A stretch of DNA of 64,000 nucleotides from Escherichia coli (GCF_045037415.1 NZ_CP173438.1); one strand, 5' to 3'. Shown: positions 35,060 to 55,157, numbered from the stretch's first letter. The notes: a model not told the origin generated them from the letters alone. A program made the numbers and translations.

Positions 35060-35410
35060 ATGCCACCACGAACCCCAAAAGCCTGCCGTGTTCGCGGCTG
35101 CCGCAATACCACGACTGACCCGTCAGGCTACTGCGAAAGCCACAAAAGCGAAGGCTGGAAGCAATACAAGCCAGGACAATCCCGTCATCAGCGCGGTTAT
35201 GGTTCGAAATGGGATGTTATCCGTGAACGTGTGCTCAAGCGTGACAAAGGCCTGTGTCAGTTATGTCTGCGTGCTGGTGTGGTGCGTGAGGCGAAAACCG
35301 TTGATCACATCATCCCTAAAGCGCATGGCGGCACCGATGCAGACAGTAATCTGCAGAGCCTGTGCTGGCCGTGTCATAAGGCGAAGACGGCCCGTGAACG
35401 GCTGAAGTAA
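35060..35410 (+). CDS. HNH endonuclease
   Basis: 116 aa; Cys pairs CRVRGC and CQLC/CWPC with HxxP/H motif (VDHIIPKAHGG...N); directly upstream of terminase genes. Confidence 0.7.
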   Translation: MPPRTPKACRVRGCRNTTTDPSGYCESHKSEGWKQYKPGQSRHQRGYGSKWDVIRERVLKRDKGLCQLCLRAGVVREAKTVDHIIPKAHGGTDADSNLQSLCWPCHKAKTARERLK

Positions 35411-35535
35411 GAACCAGTTCCCACTGCCAGAGGGGAGGGGCGGGTCAAATCCCTGTGACCTGACGTCTTCCGGACTGCCCGCCCCATCGTTTTTTTATAC
35501 CCGCGAAAAATGAAATTTAACCAGGAGTGCCGCAT

Positions 35536-36030
35536 ATGGCTGGAACGGCGGGGCGTTCCGGGCGTCGCCCCAAGCCAACGGCGCGCAAGGCGCTGGCCGG
35601 AAACCCCGGCAAGCGAGCCCTGAATAAAGATGAACCTGTTTTTACGCCCATCAAAGGTGTTGAGCCACCGGAGTGGTTCGCTGAAGAAGATCTCCCTCTC
35701 GCCACGATCATGTGGCAACTGACAACCAAAGAACTCTGTGGTCAGGGCCTGCTGTGCGTGACTGACCTCGCGGTGCTTGAGCGGTGGTGCGTGGCCTACG
35801 AGTTCTGGCGACGTGCCGTGAAAAATATTGCCAGACAGGGCAACACCATCATCGGTGCAATGGGCGGCAGGGTCAAAAATCCGGAGCTGACCGCCAAAAA
35901 AGAACAGGAGTCCGAGATGAACAGTACGGGGGCAATGCTCGGACTCGACCCCAGCAGCCGCCAGCGTCTGATTGGCCTGGCGGGGCAGAAGAAAGCCACT
36001 AACCCGTTTCTGAAAATCATCGAATCATGA
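35536..36030 (+). CDS. Terminase small subunit
   Basis: ATG 35536 with AGGAG RBS; basic N-terminus; position immediately before terminase large subunit. Confidence 0.65.
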
Positions 36031-37760
36031 GCCGGAAATCTTACCCCAACGTAAATGCTGCCAATCAGTATGCCCGTGATGTCGTGCGCGGAAAGATTGT
36101 GGCCTGCCAGTTTGTGATTCAGGCCTGCCAGCGCCATCTTGATGACCTGATGGAGGAAAAAAGTAAGTTGTTTCGTTACCGCTTCGACAAGGACCTGGCT
36201 GAACGGGCCGCGAAATTTATTCAGCTGTTGCCGCACACCAAGGGTGAGTGGGCATTCAAGAGGATGCCCATCACGCTGGAGCCGTGGCAGCTCTTTGTGA
36301 TCTGCTGTGCGTTTGGCTGGGTCAATAAAGGCTCCCGGCTGCGCCGCTTCAGGGAGGTGTATACCGAAATCCCTCGTAAGAACGGCAAATCGGCAATCTC
36401 TGCCGGTGTTGCCCTGTATTGTTTTGCCTGTGATAACGAGTTTGGCGCGGAAGTGTATTCCGGTGCCACGACAGAGAAACAGGCGTGGGAAGTCTTTCGC
36501 CCGGCTCGACTGATGTGTAAACGCACACCCATGCTGACGGAAGCGTTCGGGATTGAGGTTAACGCCTCAAACATGAACCGTCCGGAGGATGGCGCGCGGT
36601 TTGAACCGCTGATCGGTAACCCCGGTGATGGTTCATCACCCCACTGTGCGGTGGTGGATGAATATCACGAGCACGCCACCGATGCGCTTTATACCACGAT
36701 GCTTACCGGGATGGGGGCGCGACGTCAGCCACTGATGTGGGCTATCACCACCGCCGGATACAACATTGAGGGGCCGTGCTACGACAAACGGCGGGAAGTC
36801 ATCGAGATGCTCAACGGTTCGGTACCCAACGATGAACTGTTCGGGATCATCTATACCGTTGATGAAGGTGATGACTGGACCGACCCGCAGGTGCTGGAAA
36901 AAGCCAATCCAAATATTGGCGTGTCGGTTTATCGCGAATTTTTGTTAAGTCAGCAGCAGCGTGCGAAAAATAACGCCCGTCTGGCAAACGTCTTTAAAAC
37001 AAAACACCTCAATATCTGGGTGTCGGCGCGTTCGGCGTATTTCAACCTGGTGAGCTGGCAGAGCTGCGAGGATAAATCATTGACCCTTGAGCAGTTCGAG
37101 GGGCAGCCGTGCATTCTGGCCTTTGACCTGGCGCGTAAGCTGGATATGAACAGCATGGCGCGACTTTATACCCGCGAGATTGACGGTAAAACGCATTACT
37201 ACAGTGTGGCCCCGCGTTTCTGGGTACCGTATGACACGGTGTACAGCGTCGAGAAAAATGAAGATCGACGGACAGCCGAACGCTTTCAGAAATGGGTGGA
37301 AATGGGCGTTCTGACCGTTACCGATGGTGCGGAGGTGGATTATCGCTACATCCTCGAGGAGGCCAAAGCGGCGAACAAAATCAGCCCGGTCAGTGAGTCA
37401 CCCATCGACCCCTTCGGGGCGACCGGGTTGTCACATGACCTTGCTGATGAAGACCTGAACCCCATCACTATCATTCAGAACTACACCAACATGTCCGATC
37501 CGATGAAAGAGCTGGAAGCGGCGATTGAATCGGGGCGCTTTCATCATGACGGCAATCCCATCATGACCTGGTGTATCGGCAACGTGGTCGGCAAAACCAT
37601 TCCTGGTAACGATGATGTGGTGAAGCCTGTCAAGGAGCAGGCGGAAAACAAAATCGATGGTGCGGTTGCACTGATTATGGCGATCGGTCGGGCAATGCTC
37701 AAAGAACCCGACGATTTCCTCTCATCTCTTGATCCGGACGATGCTCTCTTAATTCTATGA
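36027..37760 (+). CDS. Terminase large subunit
   Basis: 577 aa; ATPase-like motif [12 protein letters not shown] and nuclease region; overlaps terS stop. Confidence 0.85.
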
Positions 37761-52203: not shown

Positions 52204-52778
52204 CAAACGATGATTACATCCGTCTGTTGTCGGCACTGTTGCCCCCCGGTCCGGCGTGGTCATCCAGCGATCCAGCGATTGCCGGTGCGGCACCGTCATT
52301 AACCCGCGTTCATCAGCGTGCGGATGCCCTGATGCGGGAGCTGGATCCGCGCACCACCACTGAACTGATAAACCGCTGGGAGCGTCTGTGCGGCCTGCCG
52401 GATGAATGTATTCCGGCGGGAACGCAGACCCTTCGCCAGCGTCAGCAACGGCTGGATGCGAAGGTTAATCTGGCGGGCGGCATCAATGAGGATTTTTACC
52501 TTGCACAGCTTGCTGCCCTGGGCAGACCAGACGCCACCATCACGCGATACGACAAAAGCACGTTCACCTGCTCATCGGCCTGTACTGACGCAGTGAATGC
52601 GACGGAATGGCGGTATTACTGGCAGGTCAACATGCCAGCCGCCACCAACACCACCTGGATGACATGTGGCGATCCCTGTGATTCCGCACTGCGTATCTGG
52701 GGCGATACCGTTGTCGAGTGCGTGCTTAACAAACTCTGCCCTTCGCATACCTACGTAATTTTCAAATATCCGGAGTAA
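52194..52778 (+). CDS. Tail protein, DUF2313/YmfQ-like (Mu gp48-like)
   Basis: 194 aa. Confidence 0.6.
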
Positions 52779-52781
52779 TCC

Positions 52782-55157
52782 ATGCATCGTATAGACACGA
52801 AAACCGCGCAGAAGGATAAGTTCGGCGCGGGTAAGAACGGTTTTACCCGTGGTAACCCCCAGACCGGCACGCCTGCCACCGATCTGGATGATGACTACTT
52901 TGACATGTTGCAGGAAGAACTTTGCAGCGTGGTGGAGGCCTCCGGTGCCAGTCTGGAGAAGGCGCGGCACGACCAGCTGCTTACCGCGCTTCGTGCGCTG
53001 CTGTTAAGCCGCAAAAATCCGTTTGGCGATATCAAATCGGATGGCACGGTAGAACGCGCTCTTGAAAATCTGGGGTTACAGGATGTAAAAGCTGGTTCAT
53101 TGAACAATCTGTACACTAACCATTCCCGTAGTGTCTTAATGGAATTGCCGTTATTATTCCCAGACTACGATACGGTGCTGGCTGCTCAGTCTGGTGCGGA
53201 ATATATGTATCCACAGGGATTTGTGGTGACAGGAGAAAAAATCTATCTGAGTTATACCGTTGAGCCAAAGCAGACACGGAACGTTATAGTTCAGTACACA
53301 ACATCCGGCGAATATGAGGGATATTATTATGTCGATAATGGAGGTCGTGGCGTTGTCAGCGAAGGCCTTGTGGTGACAACGGATTACGGTGGATTACGTT
53401 TGTTCATGTCAGGAGAAAATGGATTACTGAAACAGTTTTCGCTTGATGGGGCAATTTCTGGTTCAGTATTGCCGTTAATTGATGAACATGATGTCGGTGT
53501 TTACAACCAGTTCAGCTATCGTAAAAACCGCTGGGTGGTTGAACAGTCAGCGCCGGAAGTGGGAGGCCTGATCACCCGCACAGTATTTGCGGTGTATGAT
53601 TTTCAGTTTCGTCGGACAGGGACATTCACATTACCGTTGCATGATTCCGGATATATCACGGAAAGCACAGACAGCTATGCAAGACGCTTCACAAAACGTC
53701 AGGGAATTGCTGTGGGAGACGATTATATTGCCTGTTCTTATGGTGGCTATTTTAATACCGGGGCATCAGCCGGATTTAACCAGTTTCAGGGGGTTAAGGT
53801 CTTTTCTCCGGATGGAGTAAAGCAGCAGGAATCCATTCTTCATCCCCAAAAAATGATAGATGTGCTTACCAGGCAGGGTTTTACACCTTCGCGCATTGAG
53901 AACGAAGGAATTTGTATTTCTGACGACGGCGGCAGTATATATTCGCTTTATATCTTTCTGGAGCGTGGGTTACCACAGGCTTATCAGAAAGGAATTGTTC
54001 TGATGAAAGAGTTCAGTACTGGCAGAGATGCTATTGATTTTCGTCAGGCAGCCTGGTTGTACACGGGGTTTGATGTGTCTCATGCCAGTATTGGAACATT
54101 TCCCCGTAGTGCCCAGGGGTTGGTAAACCCGGTGTTGGGGACGGTATTCACATCCCTGTCTGAAATTCTGGCATATATGCGTTCTGTGAGTCAGAAATGG
54201 TTTTGTCTGCATACAACCACGACACCGATTAAAGATCTGAGTGGAAATGACATTCCTGCTGACAATTATGTGTTCATCAAGAATGCTAATAACCAGACAT
54301 TCTATATAACGCAGGAGTCAGCTGAAGGTGGAATAAAATATAAAGCTGTCACTACAGACAGCGGAGAATATGGTTTTCAGCGACAAAGAGAGGCAATCTG
54401 GTCCAATGTTATCACCATCGCACAAAAGAGCGATGGTGAGGATCAGTTTAATCGTATTATCGCTGCCTCGAAAAGTGGTTCAGGTAAAAATCAGGATAAA
54501 ATACTGGTAGTTGACCAACAGGCATCAGAGGGGAATAACACGCTGGTAATTGGCGGTGGTTCATCTGTGTTCAGGTCAGCGACAGTGATTGATTTTGCAA
54601 CGAATCAGGATGCAAATGCCACAGGAGGAGAAAAGAGATGGCGCATAGATTCATCAGGAAATCTCCGCCCTTATACAGATAATACGTATTCGATCGGTTA
54701 TGCCTCATGGCGACCCGCACAGGTTTATTCAGCTACGGGAAGTATCAGTACATCAGACCGGACTCATAAACAGGACGAAACAATTCTGTCGGATGCAGAA
54801 AAAAGGGTTGCCAGAAAGCTGCTCGGGTATATCTGTCGGTTCCGTTTCAGAGATGCAGTGTCCAGCAAAGGGAACGCAGCCAGATGGCATGTAGGAGTGA
54901 TTGCTCAGGACGTACAGAAGGTCTTCTCTGAGGAAGGGCTGGACGCTTTTGATTACGGTATTTTGTGTCGTGATGAATATCCGGCGGAATATGAAGTGGT
55001 TTACGGGACTCGTATGGAGCTTGGTCCTGACGGACTCCTTACAATGGAAGAATACGATACCGGAGAGCGCAAGCTGGTCAGGGAGGCTGGTGAAATAATG
55101 TCTGTAAGGAATGATGAGCTGCATTATTTCATGCTGGCATCGCTGTCTGGCCAGTGA
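52782..55157 (+). CDS. Tail fiber protein with C-terminal intramolecular chaperone (peptidase S74-like) domain
   Basis: 791 aa; conserved N-terminus, AT-rich variable central part, C-terminal S-D-R-T-H-K motif (about 54750-54770) and downstream conserved block typical of self-cleaving chaperone domains. Confidence 0.75.

Follow-up and report, generated by a model that had tools for sequence, protein, structure and literature searches.

We analyzed a stretch of 64,000 nucleotides (nt) of the Escherichia coli genome GCF_045037415.1 (NZ_CP173438.1), referred to below as the window, whose positions serve as coordinates throughout. It carries a prophage of 40 kb (40.1 kb; 15793-55948) inserted at the tRNA-Ser gene serU of a chromosome of sequence type 131 (ST131). 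The tRNA-Ser is located at 15765-15855, and its 3' part (15793..15855, + strand) constitutes attL, which forms a 63-nt direct repeat with the duplicate of this part at 55886..55948 (attR, + strand). This is the only pair of attachment (att) repeats, and it encloses the entire 40 kb. We are concerned here chiefly with the late half of the prophage, the virion module at 35060-55157.

Genes were assigned with Pfam, whose scores were far beyond chance, and with PHROGs. All open reading frames (ORFs) of the module lie on the + strand and abut or overlap one another. The module opens with the gene for an HNH endonuclease, a terminase accessory protein (35060-35410; PF01844, 2e-16), which is 97% identical to orf53 of phage SfV and 36% identical to gp74 of HK97. 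Window position 35469, just 3' of this gene, aligns to nt 1 of the linear SfV genome, and position 35351 to SfV 36957 of 37074. Because both ends of that genome abut here, the cohesive-end site (cos) probably lies at about 35468 (junction 35468..35469). There follow the genes for a P27-family small terminase subunit (TerS, 35536-36030; Terminase_4, PF05119, 1e-20; 98% to SfV orf1) and the large terminase subunit (TerL, 36027-37760; TerL_ATPase and TerL_nuclease domains; 98% to SfV and 25% to HK97 gp2). A small, hydrophobic, membrane-like protein of 53 residues, which is annotated in RefSeq, occupies the interval between TerL and the portal (37757..37918; phrog_7105). Next come the portal (37908-39134; PF04860, 2e-98), an S78 (HK97-family) prohead protease (39127-39726; PF04586, 2e-40), and a major capsid protein of the HK97 fold (39741-40958; PF05065, 2e-70; 24% amino acid identity to HK97 gp5), and from HNH through capsid the order is collinear with SfV orf53 and orf1-orf5. 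The capsid gene is followed by a terminator-like hairpin (40978..40997), at a position where a terminator is also annotated in SfV. The head block is completed by a head-tail adaptor of the HK97 gp6/Ad1 type (41036-41359; PF05135; phrog_40, the HK97 gp6 family), a head-closure protein of the HK97 gp7/Hc1 type (41356-41766; PF05521, 2e-21; phrog_25, the HK97 gp7 family), and Neck1, a tail-completion protein encoded by the final head-side gene (41741..42247; phrog_879, 3e-95; 93% to SfV orf8).

A block of tail genes in the order of phage Mu begins immediately 3' of these connectors, and the genes from 41036 to 52778 are contiguous. It opens, at the position of Mu gp37, with a tail terminator (42244-42804; PF23840, 3e-25, and a weak match to Gp37, PF09646; phrog_209), followed by a small protein of the DUF2635 family that is 40-42% identical to Mu gp38 (42813..42983). 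The Mu gpL-type sheath gene (42967-44464) appears as two ORFs, owing to an extra A at 43843, with sheath domains on both halves, and it adjoins the gene for a tube protein of the Mu gpM family (44464-44820; PF10618, 2e-32; phrog_185, which also contains Mu gpM). The tail assembly chaperone (TAC) gene (44817-45140, with a frameshift product to 45232; PF10109) contains a perfect -1 slippery heptamer (T TTT TTT, 45068-45074) that opens a -1 frame of 52 codons. From frame analysis we infer that a -1 shift would give a product of 138 residues beside the 107-residue TAC, ending at 45232 over the start of the tape-measure gene; such a frameshift is of the expected G/GT type (E/E' type), and it is unannotated in RefSeq. 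The tape measure (45225-47126; PF10145, 2e-42; 99% to phage vB_EcoM-720R4 and 24% to SfV) is followed by a putative moron of 162 residues (47191-47679; phrog_5586).

The baseplate genes follow: a Mu gpN-like hub or "DNA circularisation" protein (DNA_circ_N, 47736-49109; PF07157, 3e-34; 40-43% to the N-terminus of Mu gp43), a Mu gpP (gp44)-like hub (49106-50185; GpP domains; 35% to Mu gp44 over 358 residues), a Mu gp45-like central spike of the P2 gpV type (50185-50733; PF06890, 2e-24; 29% to Mu gp45), and three wedge proteins. These resemble Mu gp46 (P2 gpW type, 50733-51158; PF07409, 6e-33; 41-45% to Mu gp46), Mu gp47 (P2 gpJ type, Baseplate_J, 51145-52203; PF04865, 8e-53; 31% to Mu gp47), and Mu gp48 (P2 gpI type, YmfQ, 52194-52778; PF10076, 1e-26; 28-31% to Mu gp48). 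The last gene encodes a tail fibre or spike of 791 residues (52782-55157; PF13884; phrog_1171, phrog_1396), and a terminator scan placed a bidirectional terminator-like hairpin (55167..55195, + strand) at the end of the late operon. NCBIfam gave no match for the fibre, Neck1, or the tail terminator. A sequence-only reading of this DNA had described the module as HNH, terminase and HK97-type head genes joined to a Mu-type contractile tail (sheath, tube, N, P, V, W/gp46, J, and gp48-like proteins), and Pfam recovered each class of gene that it had named, where and in the order it had placed them. The low G+C content of the moron, the -1 site of the chaperone, the nature of the fibre, and the apparent frameshift in the sheath gene go beyond that reading.

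Relationship to SfV, Mu, and HK97

When the region was compared by megablast with 50,697 phage records, the best group consisted of SfV, SfI, SfII, SfIV, and vB_EcoM-720R4 (an induced E. coli myovirus, hereafter 720R4), with 94-97.6% identity over 55-72% of the query; no record among the 50,697 covered at least 80% of the module. SfV is collinear in nucleotide sequence over 35469-44845 (91%) and 47805-53077 (97%), and 720R4 over 35060-37699 and 41035-53077 (96-97%). All five phages share with the prophage the gene order from HNH and cos to gp48, with an HK97-type head and a Mu-like tail. At the protein level, all 21 of the virion proteins encoded by SfV orf1-orf21 had collinear matches, most at 91-100% amino acid identity, and the SfV holin and lysin were matched as well. 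We therefore take the region to be, very probably, the late operon, encoding the virion, of a temperate SfV-like phage (a "lambdoid myovirus") resident at serU in ST131.

The sequence-only reading had held that a single reference phage collinear across all modules would speak against a mosaic origin. SfV is such a phage for the virion genes, the holin, and the lysin, but not for the early, integration, and cargo regions, which differ, so that collinearity with one reference phage does not extend over all modules. Indeed, a tblastn search of the whole window gave no match to SfV gtrA, gtrB, gtrV, int, xis, cI, cro, dam, or Q. Whereas SfV carries the gtrABC cassette for serotype conversion, the prophage has no gtr cassette between fibre and att; its integrase is different from that of SfV (int/xis), with att at tRNA-Ser serU; and in place of the short orf21 fibre and assembly protein of SfV it has a self-chaperoned fibre of 791 residues of the β-propeller type. 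To judge from these genes, the prophage is SfV-like but not serotype-converting.

The relatives also suggest what the particle would look like. A passage in PMC3851460 assigns the head proteins of SfI, SfII, SfIV, and SfV to the HK97 family and the phages, by electron microscopy, to the Myoviridae, and an excerpt of PMC3603311 treats "SfV-like" prophages as a separate group defined as lambdoid Myoviridae. By analogy, the virion is predicted to have an isometric head and a contractile tail.

How the two halves of the module relate to their namesakes was addressed by reciprocal tblastn of the window against the Mu and HK97 genomes. The Mu genome matched in only eight proteins (gp38, L, N, P, and gp45-48), which are collinear and 28-46% identical in amino acid sequence. 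Together with the Pfam assignments, these matches bear out the Mu-type tail of the sequence-only reading, and the GenBank record of SfV likewise labels orf10-orf20 "similar to phage Mu" (Gp38, L, N, P, GP45-48). The order of the Mu tail genes gp37-gp48 is shared (terminator, gp38, sheath, tube, chaperone, tape measure, N, P, gp45-48, and fibre), and the tube falls in the same PHROG as gpM. No match was found to Mu A, B, c, or the lysis, packaging, or head (gp28, gp29, F, I/Z, T) genes. Mu thus has a transposase (A/B), a repressor, packaging and head genes, a G-segment fibre, and an intact Gin that the prophage does not. Unlike those of Mu, replication and integration of the prophage are lambdoid and site-specific, as marked by the att repeats.

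HK97 matched only TerL (25%), portal (26%), capsid (24%), the HNH protein gp74 (36%), the endolysin (96%), and Rz (54%); for TerL, portal, and capsid the identities fall in the range 24-27%. The two heads have in common an HNH gene beside cos, TerS and TerL, a portal, an S78 protease, a capsid protein of the HK97 fold with no separate scaffold gene, and gp6/gp7-type connectors, the adaptor and head-closure proteins being in the same PHROGs as gp6 and gp7. No HK97 tail protein (major tail protein, H, M, L, K, I, or J) was matched. The tail of HK97 (Hendrixvirinae) is of the lambda type and non-contractile; the prophage has sheath and baseplate genes instead.

The switch from HK97-type to Mu-type genes can be assigned to the interval between the ends of the head-closure and Neck1 genes (41766 and 42247) and the starts of the terminator and gp38-like genes (42244 and 42813). 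We place it there because the adaptor and closure proteins share PHROGs with HK97 gp6 and gp7 and the tube shares one with Mu gpM.

Outside the virion genes, the prophage has a lambda-like layout (int, early left arm, cI/cro, replication, Q, lysis, and late genes), as indicated by the RefSeq annotation of an identical prophage and by lambdoid matches. A lambda-family holin, the HK97-like endolysin, Rz, regulators of the cI/Cro type, and replication genes of the O/P type were all found, in agreement with the lambdoid early and lysis regions of the sequence-only reading.

Integrity of the prophage and a predicted assembly pathway

Several points weigh against the assignment of the region to an intact SfV-like late operon. 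The tube, chaperone, and tape measure are tied to Mu at the family level only or have no BLAST match, and Neck1 and the terminator belong to PHROGs other than those of their HK97 and Mu counterparts, so the exact junction rests on position and weak similarity. The sheath gene is split into two ORFs by an insertion of 1 nt, and the integrase of the same prophage in ST131 strain THO-003 is flagged in RefSeq as frameshifted, so that the prophage copy in the window might be defective. Finally, particle production is a prediction from the genes alone.

The sheath gene is intact, at 1497 bp, in THO-003, SfV, and 720R4, and the extra A at 43843 occurs in one of the 1064 E. coli genomes that contain the sheath fragment. 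The window is 99.986% identical to THO-003 over 49 kb, with seven differing positions, four of them indels, and these abolish all but one of the five GAGACC/GGTCTC sites in this interval. Differences are located at 15796, 28968-28970, 43843 (within a GAGACC site), 55889, and 58001. Two of the four indels are an identical T insertion, one in the tRNA-Ser of the host and the other in attR, and ARAGORN could not type the tRNA with the insertion. A further difference, A7 to A8 at the programmed-frameshift site of a copy of IS1397, fuses the transposase ORFs (57520-58878). A passage in PMC4659465 reports that in ST131 an Eco31I-type system, EcoMI, methylates 100% of GAGACC sites on both strands. 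Since the indels fall on methylated GAGACC sites and the extra A is found in a single genome, the latter is most likely a methylation-linked error of long-read base calling rather than a real mutation. On the same grounds we rejected the idea that the frameshift in the sheath gene is real or is a programmed one. The apparent sheath pseudogene is thereby flagged as a probable artefact and not as biology.

These findings bear on the view that the module is a decaying, non-functional remnant whose broken sheath and integrase genes would preclude virions. In its favor are the two sheath ORFs, the frameshift flag on the integrase of THO-003, and a possible remnant of an invertase 3' of the fibre gene (E = 0.003). 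But the sheath insertion is probably artefactual, all other virion ORFs are intact, and the integrase ORF (341 residues) keeps its HxxR and catalytic Tyr region. In the interval 15883-16933 (- strand) only the extreme C-terminus of the integrase seems to be affected, and excision competence is uncertain. We therefore regard decay as unlikely and keep to an SfV-like operon with a complete set of virion genes.

By homology at every step to characterized relatives, such an operon would act as follows. Late transcription of the Q type would come first, after which HNH, TerS, and TerL would cleave concatemeric DNA at cos (about 35468) and package it by way of the portal into a scaffold-less HK97-type prohead matured by the S78 protease. 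The gp6-type adaptor, gp7-type closure protein, and Neck1 would then seal the head and offer a docking surface. The tail would be built separately, in the manner of Mu and P2, from a baseplate composed of hub proteins (N-, P-, and gp45-like), wedges (gp46/47/48-like), and fibre. The tape measure would set the length of the tube, aided by the chaperone pair (the 107-residue TAC and the 138-residue product); tube and sheath would polymerize; and the gp37-like terminator would cap the tail and join it to the neck.

Age of the head-tail join and recent exchanges

Of 5426 complete E. coli genomes, 1044 contained the junction segment at 41000-43100 (2.1 kb) at a coverage of at least 80%. The architecture is therefore ordinary, occurring in about one in five. 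The entire 21.5-kb module, including the right flank, was found in 73 genomes, which, among the matches listed, were mostly ST131-type strains. The combination of an HK97-type head with a Mu-type tail is not peculiar to this prophage but belongs to an already known, long-described group: the architecture was reportedly described for a lambdoid phage in papers of 2002-2003 on the genome and the morphology of SfV (Allison et al.). Part of an earlier account likewise notes the same combination, a Mu-like tail and an Sfi21-like head, for prophages of Pseudomonas putida.

Sliding-window comparisons point to much younger events. Identity changes sharply at two points: within the portal gene, at about 38790, and just past the post-capsid hairpin, at about 41020; the hairpin is located at this right-hand breakpoint. 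Outside these breakpoints the flanks are 95-99% identical to SfV. Between them (38790-41020) identity to SfV falls to 59-81%, and that to the siphovirus vB_EcoS-689R5 (689R5) is 96-100%, except in the final 130-nt window, which spans the right breakpoint (87%). Given the position of the left breakpoint, the portal is chimeric, SfV-like up to about 38790 and 689R5-like thereafter. In amino acid sequence the protease is 100% identical to that of 689R5 and 81% to that of SfV, and the capsid protein is 100% and 68% identical, respectively. The lambdoid siphoviruses 689R5, Evi, and PhiR49_2 share the portal C-terminus, protease, and capsid at 97-100% nucleotide identity but differ in the terminase (37% identity), the connectors, and the whole tail, which is of the lambda type and non-contractile. 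In 720R4 this position is taken by another head cassette (28% identity in the portal, 24% in the capsid). A second cassette (44845-47805) comprises the chaperone, the tape measure, and the extra ORF (the moron); it is 97-100% identical to 720R4, whereas in SfV the corresponding values are 44% and 24% and the extra ORF is absent. In the fibre, similarity to SfV orf21 or to a YfdL-like protein of 720R4 is confined to the first 100-150 residues, and the early region matches lambdoid phages of the Rac/PPompW/mEp460 type, not SfV.

Thus, four sets of sequences look to have been exchanged recently: the portal C-terminus, protease, and capsid, with HK97-headed lambdoid siphoviruses; the chaperone, tape measure, and moron; the fibre; and the early and integration regions together with the Q-to-holin segment and its ATPase cargo gene. 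The modular recombination between phage lineages that the sequence-only reading had proposed is accepted as the explanation of this architecture and is supported by the breakpoints and swapped cassettes. Such exchange is, on these comparisons, real and ongoing, in cassettes smaller than the head-tail join. The region can accordingly be filed as an SfV-like serU prophage, with recent mosaicism placed in the capsid, tape-measure/moron, fibre, and early-region cassettes.

It might be supposed instead that the head-tail join itself is a recent event peculiar to this prophage, a new chimera of an HK97-like siphovirus and a Mu-like phage. The lack of a phage record matching at least 80% of the module and the complete identity of the protease and capsid to those of a siphovirus would fit such an origin. 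We hold it to be extremely improbable, since the join from connectors to sheath is collinear and 91-98% identical in SfV and 720R4, recurs in 1044 of the 5426 E. coli genomes, and lies away from the recent breakpoints (about 38790 and about 41020), which are inside the head block and not at the head-tail boundary. Moreover, identities of only 28-46% to Mu and 24-27% to HK97 bespeak ancient divergence, and the join is old, inherited as one block across the SfV-like group.

That two elements lie side by side, an HK97-type lambdoid remnant and a Mu-like prophage or R-type tailocin cluster, has in its favor that stand-alone Mu-like tail clusters exist (for example, the R-syringacin tailocin, in a passage of PMC4542187), but it is scarcely credible in view of the single pair of att repeats, the lack of Mu transposase, repressor, and head genes, the overlapping, contiguous genes on one strand with no break at 41766-42813, and the same layout in the single cos-ended SfV genome of 37 kb and in the 720R4 record.

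Tail fibre, moron, and chromosomal setting

The fibre and the moron are the only parts of the module for which there is no described counterpart. The fibre consists of a conserved N-terminal baseplate adaptor of the SfV/Mu type (residues 1 to about 105), a β-propeller core (about 112-430), further β domains, and a C-terminal S74 domain (658-791), an intramolecular, self-cleaving chaperone whose sequence matches in the PDB include the L-shaped fibre (pb1) of T5, gp12 of phi29, and the endosialidase chaperone. There is no separate assembly gene 3' of the fibre. The central 500 residues had only 10 relatives (clusters) in 5.8 billion, most of them tailspikes of Rahnella whose N-termini are of the P22 head-binding or TSP1 type. 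An AlphaFold2 (AF2) model of the fibre had a mean predicted local distance difference test (pLDDT) score of 62, with about 85 for residues 112-430 and below 50 for the N-terminus and for 534-668. Foldseek matched the core to receptor-binding proteins (RBPs) of the Staphylococcus aureus phages phi11 (Gp45), 80alpha, P68, and NF5 (E values of 5e-12 to 9e-10) and to β-propeller domains of the NHL/WD type (about 1e-7 to 1e-5). Those of phi11 (Gp45), 80alpha, and P68, which bind wall teichoic acid, are the nearest solved folds. Global TM-scores were low (0.25-0.38) despite E values of about 1e-11, and the model is confident only in part; we therefore limit the claim to a β-propeller, RBP-like core. 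The fibre is a cassette-type swap of an RBP, as is typical of phages. In the PGAP annotation its intact ORF is divided in two, as a "partial StfP pseudogene" and a "tail fiber domain protein" of 326 residues.

The moron gene, flanked by those for the tape measure and the baseplate hub, has a G+C content of 34%, against 52-57% in its neighbors. The N-terminus of the protein resembles a signal peptide, and two of its cysteines are conserved. Searches of Pfam, NCBIfam, and PADLOC gave no match, and phrog_5586 has no assigned function. Among the 50,697 phage records the gene was found in one, 720R4; otherwise it occurs in a handful of enterobacterial clusters (E. coli and Shigella). A scan for promoters and terminators around it revealed no flanking signals beyond chance, and a structure model from an alignment of six sequences was unusable (pLDDT 47). 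We suggest, tentatively and as a rather doubtful possibility, that fibre and moron could give the prophage an undescribed receptor specificity and an equally undescribed surface or periplasmic factor expressed in the lysogen.

Two other genes look like cargo and sit on either side of the lysis cassette. One, between a DUF1133 (Q-region) gene and the holin gene, encodes an AAA/STAND-like P-loop ATPase of 463 residues (31507-32898); the other, between Rz and the HNH gene, encodes a DUF2441 protein of 202 residues (34380-34988). A PADLOC search for defence functions among the ATPase, the DUF2441 protein, the moron, and the HNH protein returned no meaningful match.

The integrase gene (15908-16933, - strand) directly follows attL. 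At the other end of the prophage, the 730 bp between fibre and attR (55157-55886) contain no long ORF but do contain short patches in common with other lambdoid phages, among them ev099, mEp332, and "SerU-LTIIb," which integrate at serU, as well as HK97, HK106, and phiP27. Within this gap, 55481-55537 matches 19 residues of the Mu invertase Gin (E = 0.003) and may be what is left of an invertible fibre segment since lost.

The region matches many O25b:H4-ST131 genomes at 100%. No published name for the prophage was found among the ST131 elements compared: EC958 Phi4, which has an invertible fibre and is located at about 1.48 Mb, is distinct from the present prophage, and M27PP1 and M27PP2 are unrelated islands of 12 kb and 19 kb.

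The prophage is flanked by mtfA, asnT, and the yersiniabactin High-Pathogenicity Island (HPI) on one side and by zinT on the other. The HPI makes up the left flank of the window (1-14536; G+C content 58-60%), with ybtA, ybtP, ybtQ, ybtX, ybtS, and a P4-type integrase gene (13274-14536), and is followed by asnT (tRNA-Asn, 14698-14773) and then mtfA. With the HPI at asnT and the prophage at serU, two mobile elements thus occupy adjacent tRNA genes. The right flank consists of zinT, the copy of IS1397, msrQP, hiuH, hprRS, and hchA.

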